Counted from the stretch's first letter, positions 15,357-23,121 are shown. The stretch: 43,260 nt of DNA from Pilimelia sp. (GCA_035553735.1 DATMJT010000312.1:1-43260); one strand, 5' to 3'. Made by a program: numbers and translations. Notes: generated by a model from the letters alone, not told the origin.

Positions 15357-16223
15357 CTACCGGCGGACCGCCGTGCCGATCCGGCCGGGCGGTGGTGGCG
15401 GCGGGGCCAGGAACTCCCGGGCGCCGCGCAGGCGTACCCGCAGCAGCGCCGCCGCCCGGTCCAGGCGCAGCCGGACGTCCAGCGGGCGCGGCAGGCCGGT
15501 GTCCGCGCTGCGCGCGGCGGGCAGCGTCGTGGGGTCCAGTCCGTCCCGCCGGGCCACCAGGAGGCCCAGCTCGTAGCGGCTGACCGCATCGGCGCCGGCC
15601 ACGTTGAGCACGCCCCGGTGACCGTTGTCGGCCAGCTCGACCAGCGCCTCCGCCAGGTCGTCGACGTGCACCGGCGTACGGATCTCGTCGGTGAACAGGG
15701 CGCCGCGCCACTGGCCGGCGGCCAGCCGGTGGGTGAGCAGTTCGGCGCCGCCGTGCCCGTCCCCCATGATCAGCGAGGTCCGGACCACGGCCGCGTCGGG
15801 CGCGACGGCCCGTACGGCGGTCTCGGCGGCGGCCTTGGCGGCCCCGTACGGGTTCACCGGATCGGGTAGCGCCGTCTCGTCGTAGTGCACGTCGCGGCCG
15901 GAGAACACCGCGTCGGTGGAGACGTGCACGAGCCGGACGCCCAGCGCCGCGGCGGCCACCGCGACGTGTGCGGCGCCGTCGGCGTTACTGCGCCAGTCGT
16001 TGCGGTCCCGCCCGGCCGCGGCGTGCAGCACCACATCGGGCCGCACCCGGCGCAGCAGCCGGCTGACCCCGTCCGGGTCGCGGATGTCGAGCCGCTCGTC
16101 GGCGGTGTCGGCCGGCGTGGCGAGGTAGGTGCCGACCGGGGACCAGCCGGCGGCCGCGGCGTGCCGCACCACCCGGCTGCCCAGGTAGCCGCTGGCTCCG
16201 GTGACCAGCATCCGTCCCGGCAT
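15357..16223 (-). CDS. NAD(P)-dependent sugar-nucleotide reductase/epimerase (RmlD-like extended SDR)
   Basis: N-terminal Rossmann motif MLVTGASGYLGSRV. Overall 288-aa RmlD-substrate-binding-like layout (HVSTDAVF, NPYGAAKAAAE). Confidence 0.75.
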   Translation of the reverse strand: MPGRMLVTGASGYLGSRVVRHAAAAGWSPVGTYLATPADTADERLDIRDPDGVSRLLRRVRPDVVLHAAAGRDRNDWRSNADGAAHVAVAAAALGVRLVHVSTDAVFSGRDVHYDETALPDPVNPYGAAKAAAETAVRAVAPDAAVVRTSLIMGDGHGGAELLTHRLAAGQWRGALFTDEIRTPVHVDDLAEALVELADNGHRGVLNVAGADAVSRYELGLLVARRDGLDPTTLPAARSADTGLPRPLDVRLRLDRAAALLRVRLRGAREFLAPPPPPPGRIGTAVRR

Positions 16224-16298: not shown

Positions 16299-18317
16299 TC
16301 AATCGGCGAGGTCGTGCAGCACACCGCTCAGCTCAGCGAGTCGATTGTCGGCCCGGCGGCGCCGGTGCCTGACCCATTCCTTCCCTTCGGCGGCGATCCC
16401 TTCCAACACGTGCAGGGTCTGGACGAGGCCGGCTGCGTCCAGCGACAGGTCGGCGAGCCCGGAGGGATCCTCGTCAGGACGAATGCCCTCAGTGCTCGAC
16501 TCGATGACCTCGACCGAGATTGGGTCTCCGTTGAACAACGTCAGCTCGAAGGTCTGCCGCTGGGCCGCGATGCCGTCTATGCGGACCGCGGCTACGGCGT
16601 CGAAGCGGTAGTTCAGCCGCTGCGTCGTTCGGAAGGTCCCGGCCTGGAAATCCAGGTCGATGTTGACCTGCCGTACGCCGTCGTCGGTGAGCAGAAAGAG
16701 CAGCAGATGATACCGCGAATACCGCCACGGTCCCCGGGGGTATCGAGCTCGCTTGTAGGGGGCCGCCGGGGCCTCGATGAAGGCGTGTGCGATGACCTGG
16801 CTGGGCCGGAGCCGGGCCTGCCGCATCGCGCGGTCGACCAGGAGCTTCCGGTCACACTCCAGCCAGGTCGCCATCTCCGTGTCCGTTGGCTTGTCCGCCA
16901 GTTTGCGCTGCCAACGCTCGAACGCCTGCCAGCGCGCCGCCCACTGCTCGGCTCGCTCCGACTTCTCGGCGACCACCCTTCGGCGCTCGGCCACGAGGCG
17001 GAAGCCGGAGCGCACCGTGAGGACCGCGGATGTCGCCGCGAGTAGGATCCAGGCCGCGCCAGGCAGCGGCGAGTGCAGCACGGCCGCCGGTACCGCCCAG
17101 TAGCTCCCGACCGCGATCCCCGCCAGCCCACCGAGGATCAGCAGAGTCGTCACGACAGGTGTGCGGAGCCGGTGTCGGTACGCCGTCAACGTGTTGTACT
17201 CCCACCGCCGACGGACGTCGCCCACCAGGTAGCGGATCAACCAGGCGATCTGTTCCGCCTCGATGCGCTGTTCCCGGTAGATCTGAACCAGCTCATCGCG
17301 CAGGTGCCGGCGGATGCCGGCGGTCTGGGCGAGCCAGTAGGAGCGCTCCGTCCCTGCTGGTACGTACCGTCTGAAGTACTTGGTGAAGAGCCGGTCCACC
17401 GCCCTGGCGAAGCCACCTTCGGGCGCCTCGGCGCGTTGACGGACCGGCACGGTCAACTCTGCGTCCTTGGCCCGCAGCCGCATCCGACGAGAGTGCCGGT
17501 CCGCGCCGCCGACCGCGAAGGCGGCCAGGCCGACCAGGCAGGCGACGTAGCCGACGATCCCGGGTAAGGAGCCACGGCGGAGTAGCAATGCGCCGATATT
17601 GCCCGCCGCGAGCACAAATACCGGCGCGCCGATCACCATGCGTATCCACTCGCGCAGTGGGATCGACGCCGACGCGACCGGACGCACCCGTGGGCGCGCC
17701 GGTGTGGGATGGAAGAACTTCCAGATCCGTTCCTCTCTGCCCCCTTCCGCGCGGGCCGCTCGCGCCTGCTCGACGGAGCGGTGCCACATCTGGTCCACCA
17801 TGGGACCCTCAAGTAACACGCCGAGATGGTCGTAAATCTTGTCGCGCTGGTCGAGCGGCAGGGCGTCGACCTCCTTAAGGATTCGTTCCGTCTCGACGGT
17901 GTCCAAGGAGCCGAGCAGGCGAAGAACCACTCGGAGGCCACCGCCCCACTCGTCGGGTCGATCAAGCGCAGAGATGTCGGCACAGATGGCGGTGAGTCGG
18001 TCGAAATCTGCGCTCGCCAACTGTCGCAACGTCCGTCCGCTCAGCAGGGCGAGCAAGCGATGGAAGTGGACCTCGTTGGTCCGGTAGCCCTGCGCCGCGG
18101 CCTCCTCGATGAGCGCGTGGGCCCGCTCCCGCATGCGGCCGTCCAGATACCTGACGCCGATCCGGAACTTGTCGACGGGGGAGGCATCCGGCGGCAGCTC
18201 ATAGTGAACATCGAAGTGGATCGCCTGCGCCTGGATGACGTCGCCGATGATGTCCTGTGCCTGGACGCCGACCCGGGCATCCCCTTGTGCGATGTTGCTC
18301 GCGGTCGGCGTCGTCAC
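16299..18317 (-). CDS. Four-TM membrane protein of unknown function, partner of the upstream PNP-family enzyme
   Basis: 672 aa; no P-loop seen. N-terminal NIAQGDARVGVQAQDIIGDV motif, followed by a helical cytosolic region. Two TM hairpins (about aa 225-271 and 387-441). C-terminal beta-rich domain (YHLLLFLLTDDGVRQVNIDL...TFELTLFNGDPISVEV). GTGA overlap with the upstream gene. Confidence 0.7.
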   Translation of the reverse strand: MTTPTASNIAQGDARVGVQAQDIIGDVIQAQAIHFDVHYELPPDASPVDKFRIGVRYLDGRMRERAHALIEEAAAQGYRTNEVHFHRLLALLSGRTLRQLASADFDRLTAICADISALDRPDEWGGGLRVVLRLLGSLDTVETERILKEVDALPLDQRDKIYDHLGVLLEGPMVDQMWHRSVEQARAARAEGGREERIWKFFHPTPARPRVRPVASASIPLREWIRMVIGAPVFVLAAGNIGALLLRRGSLPGIVGYVACLVGLAAFAVGGADRHSRRMRLRAKDAELTVPVRQRAEAPEGGFARAVDRLFTKYFRRYVPAGTERSYWLAQTAGIRRHLRDELVQIYREQRIEAEQIAWLIRYLVGDVRRRWEYNTLTAYRHRLRTPVVTTLLILGGLAGIAVGSYWAVPAAVLHSPLPGAAWILLAATSAVLTVRSGFRLVAERRRVVAEKSERAEQWAARWQAFERWQRKLADKPTDTEMATWLECDRKLLVDRAMRQARLRPSQVIAHAFIEAPAAPYKRARYPRGPWRYSRYHLLLFLLTDDGVRQVNIDLDFQAGTFRTTQRLNYRFDAVAAVRIDGIAAQRQTFELTLFNGDPISVEVIESSTEGIRPDEDPSGLADLSLDAAGLVQTLHVLEGIAAEGKEWVRHRRRRADNRLAELSGVLHDLAD

Positions 18318-19468
18318 GCCAGCCCCTTGGCGACCGCGATAATCGTGGCCAGCCGCGCCGCCAGCTCCGTCACGTCAGCCAACAGGCCGCGCAGACGCTT
18401 CAGTGCCACCACCAGGGTGCTCCTGCTTCGTGGGGTGTCCTCTCGGACGCACTCCCGCGCCACGTCCAGCTCCGCAGTCGCGGCCGCGTACGTCTCCTCA
18501 TCGACTTGGCCGTCACCGCGAGCCCGCTTGAGATCCTCGCGCAGGTCCGCGATGGCGACTGCAAGGTCGACCGGCTCGTTGGGGGCGGAGCTGACGACGA
18601 CATTGCCGTGAATCTGTCCAGCCTGCACTCCGACCCGTGCGTTTCCGGTGGCGATGTTCCGGTTCGTCATGCTCATTGGCTCACTCCCGTTCGCTCGGAT
18701 CGGGCGGTTGGCACCCGTCGTGCTTTCGGTGATCAGTTCCTGCGCCAGGGCCACTGCGAAGGCTGCGGCGTGGGCTGCGGCTCGCGGCTGCCAGTTCGCT
18801 CCGTCGGTGGTCGCCTTGCTCCCGTCGGCGCGGTCGCTGATCCCGCGCACGACGATCACGGGAAGGGCACGGTTGAGGTGACCGGCCTGGGCCACGCCGG
18901 CAGCCTCCATCTCGATCGCCACAGCGTCGTTGTAGTGTTGGCGCACCCACCGCGCCTGGTCGGAGACGGCCGAGTCCTGTACGACCTCCCCGGCGGCGAT
19001 GGGCCCGAAGTGGACCCTCGGAACGGGGGCCGCGAGGAGCCCGCGACTCCACTCGTCGGACCGCGCTACGTGATGTGCGAGTTGGTCGGCCTCGTGGGCA
19101 ATCTCCCATGCCTTCGGTCGGGCCTTCAATCCGTCGTCCTCGCTGGTGCCCCCGTGGTACGCGTAAATCTTGCTGGCCACCACGACGTCTCCCAGCCGGA
19201 TGTTGGGCCACAGGCCTCCGGCTACGCCGACGAAGAGCGCAGCGGCGGGGGAGAACTCCGCCATCGCCCGCTCGGCCAGTACCGCTGCGGGATGGTTGCC
19301 CTTGCCCACCAGGGTGAGCGCCACCTGGCCACTGGTCCCTCCCACGCGGCCCACCTCGAAGCGGGTGCCGGCCGGGTGCCGGTGCAGCCGCAGGTCGGTC
19401 AGGTGCTTCCGGACGGCCTGGTACTCCAGATCCAGGGCCGTAAGGATCACGACAACGCCGGTGTTCAT
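18314..19468 (-). CDS. PNP_UDP_1 (MTA/SAH-nucleosidase-like) family nucleosidase with a C-terminal adaptor-like extension
   Basis: ILTALDLEYQAV, FVGVAGG, AIEMEAAGVAQ and VVRGISDRADG motifs of the purine nucleoside phosphorylase/nucleosidase fold (aa 1-245). An extra ~135 aa contains NIATGNARVGVQAGQIHGNVVV plus a helical tail. ATGA overlap with the upstream Nudix gene. Confidence 0.8.
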   Translation of the reverse strand: MNTGVVVILTALDLEYQAVRKHLTDLRLHRHPAGTRFEVGRVGGTSGQVALTLVGKGNHPAAVLAERAMAEFSPAAALFVGVAGGLWPNIRLGDVVVASKIYAYHGGTSEDDGLKARPKAWEIAHEADQLAHHVARSDEWSRGLLAAPVPRVHFGPIAAGEVVQDSAVSDQARWVRQHYNDAVAIEMEAAGVAQAGHLNRALPVIVVRGISDRADGSKATTDGANWQPRAAAHAAAFAVALAQELITESTTGANRPIRANGSEPMSMTNRNIATGNARVGVQAGQIHGNVVVSSAPNEPVDLAVAIADLREDLKRARGDGQVDEETYAAATAELDVARECVREDTPRSRSTLVVALKRLRGLLADVTELAARLATIIAVAKGLA

Positions 19469-20199
19469 GGTTCCGCCGTCTCCCTGTCTGTCGGGCTGGT
19501 GGGTCGGGTCATGGGCGGGTGCAGCGTCCGGTGCGGGCCAGCACGGAACAGCCGCGCGGGCCGACCGATGTCGCTCTTCCTGGTCGGACCTGCCGGCACG
19601 ATGAAGCCGTCGACGCTCTGCACCTTCCGGTAGAAGTTCCGCGGGTCGAGGCGCAGACCCCAGACCGCTTCATAGACGTGCTGGAGGTCGGAGATGGTGA
19701 AGGTCGGCCCGCAGAACGCCGTGGCCAGCGCGGTGTGCTCAAGCTTTCGCCGTGCGCGGTGCACGCCGTCGGCGACGATCCGGCGGTGGTCGAACGCCAG
19801 TCGTTCCCTTCCCGACAGAACCAGGTCGGTGGGCGTCCAGCACGCGTTCGAGGCGTCGGTCCCGGCGCTGGGTTCCGGAAGCCCGGGGGCGATCGCCAGG
19901 TAGGCAACGGACACCACGCGGCCTCTCGGATCCCGCTTCGGGGCGCCGTACACCCCCAGTTCCTCGAGGTGTAGGTGCTCTGCCGTCAGACCCGCCTCCT
20001 CGGTCAGCTCCCGGTGGGCCGCGGCCGGCAACTCCTCCTCGGCGTGGCTCAGAAAGCCGCCCGGAAGTGCCATCGCACCGCGGTACGGCTCGATGCCTCG
20101 CTCAACGAGCAGCACCTGCAACTGTCCCTCGCGGAGGGTGAGGATGACCAGATCCACCGCCAAGAGCACCGCCGGAGGGACCCACGAACCGTCGGACAC
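19465..20199 (-). CDS. NrtR-like protein: Nudix hydrolase domain fused to a C-terminal winged-helix domain
   Basis: Intact Nudix box GFLSHAEEELPAAAHRELTEEAGL. C-terminal FDHRRIVADGVHRARRKLEHTALATAF...FTISDLQHVYEAVWG, as in NrtR regulators. The start is uncertain: GTG 20199 is chosen from the expected domain start, but the ORF is open to ATG 20454. Confidence 0.75.
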   Translation of the reverse strand: MSDGSWVPPAVLLAVDLVILTLREGQLQVLLVERGIEPYRGAMALPGGFLSHAEEELPAAAHRELTEEAGLTAEHLHLEELGVYGAPKRDPRGRVVSVAYLAIAPGLPEPSAGTDASNACWTPTDLVLSGRERLAFDHRRIVADGVHRARRKLEHTALATAFCGPTFTISDLQHVYEAVWGLRLDPRNFYRKVQSVDGFIVPAGPTRKSDIGRPARLFRAGPHRTLHPPMTRPTSPTDRETAEP

Positions 20200-20593
20200 A
20201 GGGGCACCGTACCCATATTGTCGTCCTGACAGGAAGTGCTTCCGGTGTCGGCTTTCGGCAGGTTGCCGCCCCTCGTCGGCTGACAGCACCTCGCCGAGAT
20301 CGTCCGTGTGGCGAACTCGTGCGTGGCCCTCCCCGAGGGCGCCGGCGCCGCCGCGTGCACCGTCGCGGGCGCGCCGCGGGTCCGTGTGTTGGTGGCGACC
20401 GAGGGCCGTGGCTGGTGCCGCAGATCCTCGCTCTCGCCGCGGTGCCAGCTCCATAGTGCTGCGTCGCCGGAGCGGCTCAGGGGGTGGCTCAGGCGGTGCG
20501 GTGGCCGGCAGCCCGGCCCCCGCTCGGCGCGGGTCGTGCAGTCGTCGCGGTGCCGGCGGACCGGCCCAAGGGCGGCGGACGGAGGAAACCGTC

Positions 20594-20718: not shown

Positions 20719-23121
20719 GTGAGACGCAAACTCGCGTCCTTCGGCGTCGTGGCCCTGACCACGGGTGCCGCACTCGCGGTCGGCTTCGGCACGACCGAAG
20801 CCAAGACCGTGCCGGACAGTCAACCGGCGGCCGCGGCCGCCGACCCCCAGCTGCTGGCCGCCACCGTGGCGGACCGGGCCGCCGACAGCGGCCTGGACGC
20901 CCTGGCGAAGGGGCCCGAGGACAGCTTCGTCCGCCAGGCCGTGGTTCCCGGCGCCGGCGGGCTCAACTACGTCCGCTACCACCGCACCTACCGCGGGCTG
21001 CCGGTCGTCGGCGGCGACGCCGTCGTCACGGTGGACGACACCGGCAACATCCGCGACACCACCGCCGCCGAGTACGGCCGGGTGGCGCTGAGGTCGGTGA
21101 CCCCGCGGATCACCGCGGCGCGGGCGACGGCGACCGCCAAGGCCCAGCTCAAGGTCGTCGAGCACGCCGCGGAGCCGCAGCTGGTGGTCTACGCGCTGAC
21201 CAAGACCCCGCGGCTGGCCTGGGAGGCGCTGGTCGAGGGCGCCAAGGTGGACGACCACGCCGACCATGACCACGGCCACGGCGCCGGCCTGGTGCCCAGC
21301 CGCCTGCACGTCTTCGTGGATGCGCTGACCGGCAAGGTGCTGGACACCTCCGACGACGTCAAGCACGCCACCGGCACCGGGTACTACCTCGGCCGGGTCA
21401 CCTTCGACACGTCGCGCTCCGGGTCCAACTACGTGATGACCGACCCGAACCGCAGTGGCCTGCGCTGCGGCGGACAGGACGGCCAGTCGTACACCAACAC
21501 CTCCGACACCTGGGGCAACGGGTCGGGCACCGACCTGCGCACCGCCTGCGTCGACGCGTTCTACGCCGCCCAGAAGACCTGGGACATGCTCGGTGAGTGG
21601 CTGAACCGCCGCGGCTACAACGGCAACGGCGGCGGCCCGCCGGCGCGCGTCGGACTGAACCAGGTCAACGCGTTCTGGAACGGCTCGTACACCAACTTCG
21701 GCAGGTCGCAGGACGGGCAGCGCCAGGTCACCCCGATCGACGTGGTGGCGCACGAGTACGGCCACGCCATCGACCAGTACACCGGCGGCGCGGCCCGCGA
21801 GGCGGGCCTCGGCGAGGCCACCGGCGACATCTTCGGCGCCCTGGCCGAGCACTACATCAACAACCCGAACGACCCGCCGGACTACACCGTCGGCGAGGAG
21901 GTCAACCTGGTCGGCCGGGGGCCGATCCGGAACATGTACAACCCCTCGCTGGTGAACAACGACCCGAACTGCTGGTCGTCGGCCGTGCCCGGCATGGAGG
22001 TGCACAAGGCGGCCGGTCCGCTGAACCACTGGTTCTACCTGCTGGCCGAGGGCTCCAACCCCGGCGGCGGCAAGCCGAGCAGCCCGACGTGCAACAACTC
22101 CACGGTGGTCGGCATCGGCATCCAGAAGGCCGGCAAGATCTTCATGGGCGCGATGAACAAGAAGACCTCCGGCTGGACCCACGCCCGCTACCGGGTCGCC
22201 ACGCTGCAGTCGGCGGTCGAGCTGTACGGCGCGGCCTCCACGGAGTGCAACACGGTCAAGGCCGCGTGGAACGCGATCAGCTTCCCGGCGCAGTCGGGCG
22301 AGCCGCAGTGCCAGAGCGCCCCGTCGGACAACTTCTCGATCTCGGTCAGCCCGACCGCGGGCAGCGTCCAGCAGGGACAGTCGGTGACCACCACGGTCTC
22401 GACCCGGACCACGCAGGGCAACGCCCAGACCGTCACCCTGAGCGCGTCCGGCCTGCCGGCCGGCGTGACGGCGAGCTTCAACCCGCCGTCGGTGACCTCC
22501 GGTGGCTCCAGCACGCTGACGCTGACCGCGTCGGCGAGCGCCACGGTCGGGGCCAAGGCGATCACGATCACGGGTACGGCGCCGTCGGGTAGCCACACCG
22601 CCACCTACTCGGTGACCGTGACCTCGCGGGACACCGACCCGGTGGACGACTTCTCGGTGTCGGTGTCGCCGGGTTCGGCCACGGTGGAGCCGGGCGGCTC
22701 GGCGACGGCGTCGGTGGCGACGGCCACCACGTCGGGCAACGCGCAGGCGCTGACCCTGAGCGTCTCGGGCGCGCCCACGGGCGTGACCGCCTCGATCGAC
22801 CCCTCGTCGGTCACCTCGGGCGGCTCCGCGACGCTGTCGGTGCAGGTCGCCTCCACGGTGGCGCGGGGCAGCTACCCGCTGACGGTCACCGCGTCCGGCA
22901 CCTCCGGCACCAAGACCGCCACCTTCACGGTGACGGTCCAGGGCGACGACCCGCCGGGCGGCTGCAACGGCGTGCCGGCCTGGAGCGCCACCACGGCGTA
23001 CTCCCCGGGCGCCAAGGTGTCGCACAACGGGCGGCTGTGGAACTCCACCTGGTACTCCACGGGCGCCGAACCCGGTGCGCCGCAGTCGTGGGCCGTGTGG
23101 GCTGACGCCGGAGCCTGCTGA
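20719..23121 (+). CDS. Secreted M4 (thermolysin-like) metallopeptidase with two Ig-like repeats and a C-terminal chitin/carbohydrate-binding module
   Basis: Signal peptide. HEYGH zinc motif and GEATGDIFG. Two ~100-aa repeats (NFSISVSP.../DFSVSVSP...). C-terminal AWSATTAYSPGAKVSHNGRLWNSTWYSTG (CBM5/12-like). AGGAG RBS 5 nt before GTG 20719. Confidence 0.85.
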   Translation: MRRKLASFGVVALTTGAALAVGFGTTEAKTVPDSQPAAAAADPQLLAATVADRAADSGLDALAKGPEDSFVRQAVVPGAGGLNYVRYHRTYRGLPVVGGDAVVTVDDTGNIRDTTAAEYGRVALRSVTPRITAARATATAKAQLKVVEHAAEPQLVVYALTKTPRLAWEALVEGAKVDDHADHDHGHGAGLVPSRLHVFVDALTGKVLDTSDDVKHATGTGYYLGRVTFDTSRSGSNYVMTDPNRSGLRCGGQDGQSYTNTSDTWGNGSGTDLRTACVDAFYAAQKTWDMLGEWLNRRGYNGNGGGPPARVGLNQVNAFWNGSYTNFGRSQDGQRQVTPIDVVAHEYGHAIDQYTGGAAREAGLGEATGDIFGALAEHYINNPNDPPDYTVGEEVNLVGRGPIRNMYNPSLVNNDPNCWSSAVPGMEVHKAAGPLNHWFYLLAEGSNPGGGKPSSPTCNNSTVVGIGIQKAGKIFMGAMNKKTSGWTHARYRVATLQSAVELYGAASTECNTVKAAWNAISFPAQSGEPQCQSAPSDNFSISVSPTAGSVQQGQSVTTTVSTRTTQGNAQTVTLSASGLPAGVTASFNPPSVTSGGSSTLTLTASASATVGAKAITITGTAPSGSHTATYSVTVTSRDTDPVDDFSVSVSPGSATVEPGGSATASVATATTSGNAQALTLSVSGAPTGVTASIDPSSVTSGGSATLSVQVASTVARGSYPLTVTASGTSGTKTATFTVTVQGDDPPGGCNGVPAWSATTAYSPGAKVSHNGRLWNSTWYSTGAEPGAPQSWAVWADAGAC

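Follow-up and report, generated by a model that had tools for sequence, protein, structure and literature searches.

Results

Organization of the locus

This work deals with a three-gene cassette of Pilimelia sp. (GCA_035553735.1, DATMJT010000312.1:1-43260) and with a short sequence motif that occurs once in each of two of its products. The whole stretch of DNA that was analysed, referred to as the window, comprises 43,260 nucleotides (nt), and the cassette consists of three overlapping genes that all run in one direction on the minus strand: an NrtR-like regulator gene (19465..20454), a gene for a nucleosidase-like protein of 384 amino acids (aa) that we call NUC (18314..19468), and a gene with a GTG start for a 672-aa membrane protein of an unannotated family, called MEM (16299..18317). 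The coordinates of the regulator gene are those of the maximal open reading frame (ORF), and the real start is probably located further downstream. This ORF encodes a Nudix domain and an NrtR winged-helix domain (Pfam NUDIX, 6e-17; NrtR_WHD, 2.3e-14), and it overlaps the start of NUC by 4 nt. NUC is composed of a PNP_UDP_1 nucleosidase domain, a linker, the motif and a helical tail. Its stop codon and the start codon of MEM share the 4-nt overlap GTGA (18314..18317, minus strand), an arrangement of translational coupling, and in most of the related loci the NUC frame stops 3-4 nt beyond the first MEM codon.

The shared motif

The motif lies at aa 271-292 of NUC (NIATGNARVGVQAGQIHGNVVV; 18593..18658, minus strand), with aa 271-290 reading NIATGNARVGVQAGQIHGNV, and at aa 8-27 of MEM (NIAQGDARVGVQAQDIIGDV; 18237..18296, minus strand); extended to aa 30, the MEM copy reads NIAQGDARVGVQAQDIIGDVIQA (nt 18228-18296). 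Both peptides are present as quoted in the initial annotation of the window, their translations match the window DNA, and the similarity that had been proposed there between otherwise unrelated neighbours was borne out: In a BLASTP comparison of NUC with MEM, the motif was the sole significant segment (16/28 identical residues, E = 4e-5; all others E > 1), and hhalign of the two protein families gave an alignment with a probability of 96% and E = 3.7e-9 that was restricted to the motif region. We do not claim homology of the NUC tail to the helical domain that follows the motif in MEM, as hhalign reaches the first helix only, and weakly. Each copy had moreover been placed right beside the junction of the two genes. 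This is correct for the MEM copy; the NUC copy is located about 276 nt upstream of the junction because a four-helix tail of about 92 residues follows the motif.

A short motif that is rich in G, A and V, residues that are common in high-GC proteomes, might owe its appearance in two neighbouring proteins to chance or composition and have no function, and a low-complexity feature of high-GC proteins was indeed the explanation under which the initial annotation would have given up its own proposal. However, a hidden Markov model (HMM) of 20 columns, built from other genomes only, recognized two sites in the six-frame translation of the window, i. e. the NUC copy (37.8 bits) and the MEM copy (22.9 bits), with the next best score at 4.1 bits, and when composition-matched six-frame ORFs of 80 related high-GC loci were scanned, 1.9 million residues in total, a single weak off-target match of at least 8 bits came up. 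The low-complexity explanation fails because the HMM hits the window exactly twice and almost nothing off-target. Given also the hhalign result and the conserved position of the motif in the two protein families, which holds for several actinomycete genera and families, we attach next to no probability to a chance resemblance.

The consensus of the motif is N-[IV]-A-x-G-x-A-x-V-G-V-Q-A-G-x-[IV]-[HY]-G-x-[VI]. The motif is conserved in 76 NUC orthologues, and all full-length MEM homologues have it at their N-terminus. In 65 orthologous pairs, neither side shows any variation at Q12; N1, G5, G10, G14 and G18 are likewise fixed or at least predominant, and in NUC strictly so. The two sides differ in their preferences at other positions: T/K4, N6, R8 and N/G19 are typical for NUC, and Q/D4, D/S6, H/Y8 and D19 for MEM. 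As compared to the rest of the same proteins, the motif is enriched in N (5.1-fold), Q, G and V (2.1-fold each) and I (1.8-fold), and depleted of K (0.19-fold), P (0.04-fold) and L (0.08-fold). The four conserved glycines split it into strands of 3-4 residues. In the MEM protein of the window, the second half of the motif is duplicated in tandem: VQAQDIIGDV is followed by IQAQAIHFDV (aa 28-37; 18207..18236, minus strand), and the two units together span aa 18-37 (18207-18266) and are identical at 20/30 nucleotides according to a manual count. This 10-residue insertion is unique to the window's protein among 17 homologues that were aligned in full. Half-motif duplications do recur, with an analogous case in MEM of L107/L108 and a duplication of QQIG on both partners of L085.

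The nucleosidase-like protein NUC

The catalytic domain of NUC (aa 6-241; 18746..19453, minus strand) is of the PNP_UDP_1 type and resembles methylthioadenosine/S-adenosylhomocysteine (MTA/SAH) nucleosidases (Pfam E = 4.8e-32). It also matches the PADLOC model "Effector, PN-superfamily" (PDLC00759, E = 1e-20). The closest solved structures are those of MTA/SAH nucleosidases (E = 4e-16), and the active-site strings EME and ISD can be aligned, as in the comparison of NUC with 4wkb (IEMEAAGVAQ/VEMEASAIAQ and VRGISDRAD/VRAISDVAD). By analogy with E. coli MTAN, the catalytic residues are presumably the Glu in EME and the Asp in ISD. NUC does not reach the NCBIfam equivalog cut-offs and is thus not the housekeeping enzyme MtnN. 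PNP-superfamily nucleosidases act as ATP or nucleotide nucleosidase effectors in the CBASS and Detocs systems, and such effectors are switched on by cyclic nucleotides or by a phosphorelay. We know of no PNP-superfamily effector that has this motif, the helical tail, a MEM partner or an NrtR-like regulator.

The AlphaFold2 (AF2) model of NUC shows a PNP fold, then a stretch with a predicted local distance difference test (pLDDT) score below 50 (aa 253-298) inside which the motif is located, and finally a confident bundle of four helices (aa 302-383; 18320..18565, minus strand; pLDDT of about 78-92 for the block). An assignment of the tail to Trypco2/Pepco (PF19631) was considered and rejected: aa 300-345 score 17.5 bits at a cut-off of 24.2 bits (E = 0.005), and this weak match is unsupported since ten stand-alone proteins made of motif and tail that we scanned show no Pfam family, and no Trypco2. 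Moreover, the cassette does not contain the protease neighbour that would be expected for Trypco2/Pepco.

Six codons ahead of the motif, an in-frame ATG (Met265) follows the sequence GGGAG, which would be a possible internal ribosome-binding site (18674..18688, minus strand). An in-frame ATG not more than 12 codons upstream of the motif is present in 75/75 NUC orthologues, and it is preceded by a Shine-Dalgarno (SD)-like core in 58 of them, as compared to 10.6% at random codon positions of the same genes. The codons that spell this core (AGG, AGT, GGG) appeared unusual for a high-GC genome, an impression rather than a measurement. To judge from these sequences, there may be an internal start that yields a 120-aa protein of motif and bundle with a MEM-like N-terminus, or the ATG may be the relic of a gene fusion.

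The membrane protein MEM

MEM starts with the motif, followed by a helical domain (aa 47-201), a transmembrane (TM) hairpin (about aa 221-288), a second helical domain (aa 303-383), another TM hairpin (about aa 388-440), a long helix up to aa 475, a beta-rich domain (aa 508-605) and C-terminal helices. The AF2 model, based on an alignment of 55 sequences, has a pLDDT of 82.8 and a predicted template modelling score (pTM) of 0.77, and aa 1-36, which include the motif, stay below a pLDDT of 50. The two TM hairpins of the model together with the distribution of positive charges suggest that all soluble domains are cytoplasmic. We found no consistent Pfam, NCBIfam or PADLOC family for MEM, and nothing significant was obtained when the model was compared with the folds in the PDB (best E = 0.04, TM-score at most 0.16). 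The databases contain 146 relatives. Nearly all of them are annotated as hypothetical proteins of about 660 aa, and those of full length start with the motif.

Some homologues deviate from this layout. The MEM homologue of L137 (1637-4060, 807 aa) is extended at its C-terminus, and a DnaJ_C match is on record for this extension. The partner gene of the stand-alone module P0352 is of similar length (801 aa), a putative MEM relative only. At L114, L115 and L118 (about 2935-4161), the similarity to MEM begins at profile position 256 only, with the motif, the helical domain and the first TM hairpin missing or replaced; these could be truncated or decayed copies.

Conservation of the cassette

A scan with one genome per species identified 292 MEM relatives among 185,579 species genomes. 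We retrieved 80 of these 292 loci, and 77 of them have upstream DNA. In 77/77 of the latter, a full-length NUC orthologue ends at the start of MEM, and 76/76 NUC/MEM pairs for which complete sequences were obtained carry both motifs. Among the hosts are Micromonospora, Actinoplanes, Dactylosporangium, Streptosporangium, Nonomuraea and Actinomadura. In 73 related loci the gene directly ahead of NUC is NrtR-like, its similarity starting near aa 66-86 of the ORF in the window, and two database proteins (P0230 and P0246) are fusions of the NrtR-like regulator with the PNP domain. Beyond the three-gene cassette there are no conserved flanking genes, and no flanking family is common to more than 6 loci. 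A cassette of a self-contained, mobile or island type would be expected to show this pattern. With divergent MEM proteins as seeds, a scan of metagenomes added 49 loci, and in 34 of them the unit of motif and tail ends at the start of MEM.

Coevolution of the partner motifs

If the two copies of the motif stack as parallel, in-register strands, substitutions should be mirrored position by position and insertions or deletions should be matched. For 64 non-redundant pairs, divergent ones included, the local-alignment score of the motifs was 56.0 for partners and 46.8 for non-partners (permutation p = 5e-5). Mirrored residues, i. e. identical non-consensus residues at the same position on both sides, were counted in 62 non-redundant pairs anchored on Gln12: 60 were observed as compared to 27.7±5.1 in shuffles, and 0/2000 shuffles reached 60. 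There was no such excess at offsets of ±1 to ±3, nor in antiparallel registers once the self-paired centre column had been discounted. The individual cases are instructive: Gln12 is replaced by Met in both partners of L105/L106 (VGVMAG and VDVMAG), Val9 by Phe in L117 (NARFGFQIG and NARFGLQVG), Val11 by Phe in L097, Gly10 by Thr in L137, and Ala13 by Val together with His17 by Asn in L086. In the subfamily L087-L098, both sides end with NSTV[VY]M. Moreover, in addition to the QQIG duplication of L085, both partners of L036 carry a one-residue deletion. Since some events are inherited by several pairs, the 60 mirrored residues go back to about ten independent ones.

Mirrored substitutions in register would also be expected for two ligands of one site. 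Thus, the copies might never touch each other, and the same third site (a pocket of MEM, a protease or a chaperone) would recognize both of them, either in competition or for the same kind of processing. The conserved internal ATG with its SD-like sequence could then provide a free 120-aa competitor with a MEM-like N-terminus. However, the AF2 model of MEM docks its own motif nowhere, with the disordered N-terminus described above, the cassette, of which the loci have only the NrtR-like, NUC and MEM genes in common, contains no conserved gene for a protease or chaperone, and the matched insertions and deletions of L085 and L036 are easier to accommodate if strand is stacked on strand than in a fixed pocket. 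We therefore regard recognition by a third site as improbable.

A module with variable outputs

The motif and the four-helix tail form a module of about 120 aa. A profile of this module yielded 216 hits among 1.84 billion representative proteins, and many of them are proteins of about 120 aa that begin with the motif. We dropped the 120-aa database proteins as evidence for separate genes, as at least one of them comes from a frameshifted draft genome: L081 (GCA_000715975.1) has fragmented cassette calls, with a 120-aa tail and a 265-aa piece of MEM, that point to frameshifts, and gene calls of this type explain some of the 120-aa entries. Stand-alone modules were verified by real upstream gaps or stop codons at L082, L117, L136, L137 and the P0352 locus. 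In other proteins the module is fused to PNP_UDP_1, to TIR_2, to Trans_reg_C and BTAD domains as in SARP regulators, or to an unannotated N-terminal domain that is cyclase-like: its five best sequence matches in the PDB are all class III cyclases, with weak support (E = 0.03-0.13). Finally, four PNP or TIR proteins lack the tail and end in the bare motif, again followed by MEM (L031, L044, L121 at 2251-2952, and L125 at 2030-2917); at the two genome loci among them, L031 and L044, the 4-nt overlap with MEM is intact. These four lineages indicate, as far as can be told from sequence, that the motif alone suffices for pairing with MEM.

In every context examined, the gene after the module encodes a MEM homologue that opens with the motif, with the exception of L086, on a truncated contig, where the next gene opens with the motif. 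Since fusions, stand-alone modules and tail-less forms all precede MEM, the motif is the constant link and MEM the constant partner, and it is the output that varies. The regulators seem to vary along with it: at the cyclase-type locus L085, a divergently transcribed gene (4174-4851) for a Crp-type regulator with a cyclic nucleoside monophosphate (cNMP)-binding domain lies alongside, in parallel to the NrtR regulator of the ADP-ribose type next to the nucleosidase, which suggests that each regulator, NrtR-like or Crp-type, senses the product of the neighbouring enzyme.

One copy on a core protein, one on variable adjacent effectors, and adjacent copies that are more alike: this is also the logic of the effector-associated domains (EADs), small globular homotypic domains (PMC7159879), and the initial annotation had proposed an adaptor domain of the EAD or Death-like type. 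Here, however, the shared region comprises about 20-25 residues without a modelled fold, the similarity stops at the motif, and four lineages retain the bare motif only. No Pfam family matched the motif region in the scanned proteins (NUC, the MEM family, ten stand-alone modules and the fusions), a negative result that is limited by the unchecked content of EAD models in the Pfam copy used, and no VMAP, iSTAND, GAP1 or other nucleoside triphosphatase (NTPase) core is encoded by the conserved cassette genes (NrtR-like, NUC, MEM). Membership in the EAD or Death-like families is thus very unlikely. In sum, the domain class proposed at the outset has to be replaced by a linear motif with a pLDDT below 50 in both monomer models, in a cassette without an NTPase. 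The coupling logic stands: there is one constant core protein, MEM, interchangeable neighbouring effectors carry the same element, and the partner copies co-vary. Similarly, composition, in-register covariation and the four conserved glycines agree with the guess of a co-assembling beta segment.

Genomic surroundings

In the window, a gene for an RmlD/SDR-type reductase (15357-16223, minus strand) is located directly downstream of MEM; other genomes do not show this linkage to the cassette. Divergent from the cassette, an 800-aa ORF (20719-23121, plus strand) encodes a protein with a signal-peptide-like N-terminus, the zinc-metalloprotease motif HEYGH, repeated Ser/Thr-rich modules and a Trp-rich C-terminal segment. 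No homologue of this ORF was found in the related loci, save for a weak match of an overlapping ORF on the opposite strand in L036. Elsewhere, the TIR-type cassette of L083 (1139-3611) is located beside a system of EACC1 and a caspase (Peptidase_C14)-WD40 protein, an HTH_31 regulator and TniB-like genes, and an IS110 transposase is encoded near the cassette of L082. The surroundings of L083 and L082 are island-like, conflict-system neighbourhoods.

Discussion

Our analysis describes a conserved two-gene core that is embedded in a three-gene cassette and in which one short motif is present on both products. We propose that this motif couples a membrane sensor with interchangeable outputs by direct, in-register pairing of beta strands that is probably amyloid-like, and we regard the chances of this proposal as evenly balanced. 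MEM carries one copy of the motif on its flexible N-terminus, and the upstream gene provides the output with the second copy. Contact between the two copies would be direct, through parallel beta strands in register, with Gly5, Gly10, Gly14 and Gly18 as turns and with Asn1 and Gln12 forming ladders; the resulting arrangement would be an amyloid-like cross-beta structure or beta-arch as in the bacterial and fungal amyloid signalling motifs. Upon a trigger at the membrane, the exposed motif of MEM would recruit or template the motif of the output protein, so that the output domains are clustered and activated, and the NrtR-like regulator, or the Crp-like protein at the cyclase-type locus, would sense the nucleotide product and adjust the expression of the operon. 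An amyloid-like or cross-beta hetero-association is favoured by the mirroring of residues, the glycines, N1 and Q12, the composition, the disorder of the motif in the models and the half-motif duplications. We infer that MEM acts as the sensor and that the signal runs from MEM to the output since in the known systems sensing is the task of the large protein that has the motif at its N-terminus, and since transcription factors occur among the outputs. In the window, the output would be an adenine-type nucleosidase, a tentative assignment, and the biological role may lie in defence or in a stress response.

Several observations weigh against this proposal. First, among 65 unique close NUC/MEM pairs, partners are no more alike than non-partners (11.0 vs 10.9 identities/20, p = 0.25). 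Because the close orthologues lack pair-specific similarity, the covariation comes from the divergent pairs and from few independent events. Second, the mirrored changes could result from one shared binding site or from gene conversion between the adjacent copies. Third, the motif on the effector side is internal in most members and has a folded bundle behind it, which is atypical for amyloid signalling effectors. Fourth, MEM is neither a NOD-like receptor (NLR) nor another known sensor. Finally, the motif cannot be assigned to BASS2, one of the bacterial amyloid signalling sequences (BASS): an HMM rebuilt from the 55 published instances (Dyrka et al. 2020, Table S2) hits the VQAGxxHGG half only, with 5-9 bits and E values of 0.2-3 for a database of about 2,100 sequences.

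Genomic linkage, modularity and in-register covariation fit equally well with a stable, non-amyloid association, in which a beta-zipper or beta-augmentation tethers the output to MEM and keeps it sequestered and inactive, like a sigma factor held by its anti-sigma factor, until a signal releases it. Such a tether would naturally explain the SARP fusions, with sequestration at the membrane followed by release, and the folded bundle together with the side-specific residues (Asn6, Arg8 and Asn19 in NUC vs Asp6, His8 and Asp19 in MEM) suggests a defined heterodimeric interface. However, the composition, rich in N, Q, G, V and I and poor in K, P and L, together with the spacing of the glycines corresponds to the published signature of amyloid signalling, and the half-motif duplications in MEM of the window, L107 and L085 recall the pseudo-repeats of HET-s and of the BASS motifs. 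Moreover, mirrored identical residues would be favoured by parallel in-register stacking, and an antiparallel zipper would not give this pattern. We consider the sequestering tether as possible but somewhat doubtful; as a rival of amyloid-like pairing it has to be taken seriously, more so than a third site that recognizes both copies.

Starting from amyloid-like pairing, one may speculate further that MEM represents a new class of membrane-embedded, NTPase-free sensors with prion-like templating of the outputs, feedback by the reaction product via NrtR or Crp, and a 120-aa protein that tunes the threshold. Here, the free protein of motif and bundle produced from the internal start of NUC would act as a cap or as a seed. 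The outputs would comprise enzymes that degrade or generate nucleotides (PNP, TIR, cyclase-like) as well as SARP transcription factors, and the latter would be the first bacterial example of transcription under the control of amyloid-type templating. This extended scheme is tentative, and we rate it as rather unlikely in its entirety.

In bacterial and fungal immunity, the coupling of adjacent genes by a short motif that is common to both is emerging as a principle. To our knowledge, it has so far been found almost only with NLR-type receptors, plus one TPR-PIN protein. If our proposal is true, the principle extends to a widespread family of unannotated actinomycete membrane proteins and gains an unusually broad set of outputs: a nucleosidase, TIR and cyclase-like domains, transcription factors and a bare helical module. 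Several hundred "hypothetical proteins" and mis-annotated "MTA/SAH nucleosidases" would gain a testable role. The natural mirrored variants (Q12M, V9F and the matched insertions and deletions) may serve as ready-made specificity swaps, and the cassette may be a tractable system for asking whether amyloid-like templating can begin at the membrane. We found no prior description of the cassette in the literature that was searched, which is not proof of absence.

Among the known systems, the closest parallel in architecture are the BASS1-10 pairs of Bell and NLR proteins (Dyrka et al. 2020): a motif of about 20-25 residues is present on an effector and at the N-terminus of the product of the adjacent, often overlapping gene. 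In the BASS motifs, N, Q, G, V and I are overrepresented and K, P and L are scarce (bioRxiv 10.1101/2020.01.06.895854), and the motif described here has the same bias, conserved G, N and Q residues and pseudo-repeats; filamentous actinomycetes are hosts in both cases, and BASS motifs also occur in Cyanobacteria. Nearest in sequence is BASS2, as the C-terminal half VQAGxVHGD is common to instances such as HNELSGTVHGVAVQAGVVHGD; the N-terminal half N-[IV]-A-x-G-x-A-x-V-G differs, however, and is one residue shorter. BASS1 is of a different sequence type (ASGSARIYQAGRDQHITER). In contrast to the BASS pairs, the partner is an unannotated protein with four TM segments rather than an NB-ARC or NACHT NLR, and the outputs are PNP, TIR, cyclase-like or SARP domains or the helical module instead of Bell. 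Moreover, most of the motifs on the effector side precede a four-helix bundle that has no counterpart in the BASS pairs, and they are C-terminal only in L031, L044, L121 and L125. An NLR-associated amyloid pair of a STAND NTPase receptor and a Bell/HeLo-like effector was also considered and rejected, since MEM has four TM segments and no family match and NUC is a PNP_UDP_1 enzyme.

The EADs are small, globular and mostly alpha-helical domains on NTPase-centred cores (Kaur et al. 2020, PMC7159879). As in these systems and in those with bacterial Death-like domains (Kaur et al. 2021, PMC8195603), a constant core is combined with variable PNPase, TIR or cyclase neighbours, and adjacent copies are most alike; unlike an EAD, our element is a linear motif without a modelled fold, and its core, a membrane protein, has no NTPase.

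Two further systems are instructive with respect to the partner protein and to the enzyme. In the Bab/Agp antiphage system of E. coli, the motif BASS11 contains four glycines as beta-breakers (Ibarlosa et al. 2024, 10.1101/2024.11.07.622273), and it has also been reported on TIR and other immune domains (10.1101/2024.11.07.622273). As in our cassette, a protein that is not an NLR carries the motif at its N-terminus and the second copy is found on the product of the adjacent gene; Bab/Agp thus shows that an NLR is dispensable. The sequences of the two motifs are unrelated, and the amyloid and the defence function are experimental for Bab/Agp and conjectural for our cassette. In fungi, PNP_UDP effectors carry the amyloid motif PUASM that pairs with the N-terminus of a NACHT NLR (Wojciechowski et al. 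2022, PMC9815663). PUASM differs in its consensus (FxGxGxQxxGxGxF), its fungal hosts, the NLR partner and its C-terminal position. As in our cassette, it is an enzyme of the PNP_UDP family that carries a short Gly- and Gln-containing motif behind the phosphorylase domain, and in both cases side-specific flanking residues, here Arg8 of NUC as opposed to Asp6 and Asp19 of MEM, hint at charge complementarity between the partners.

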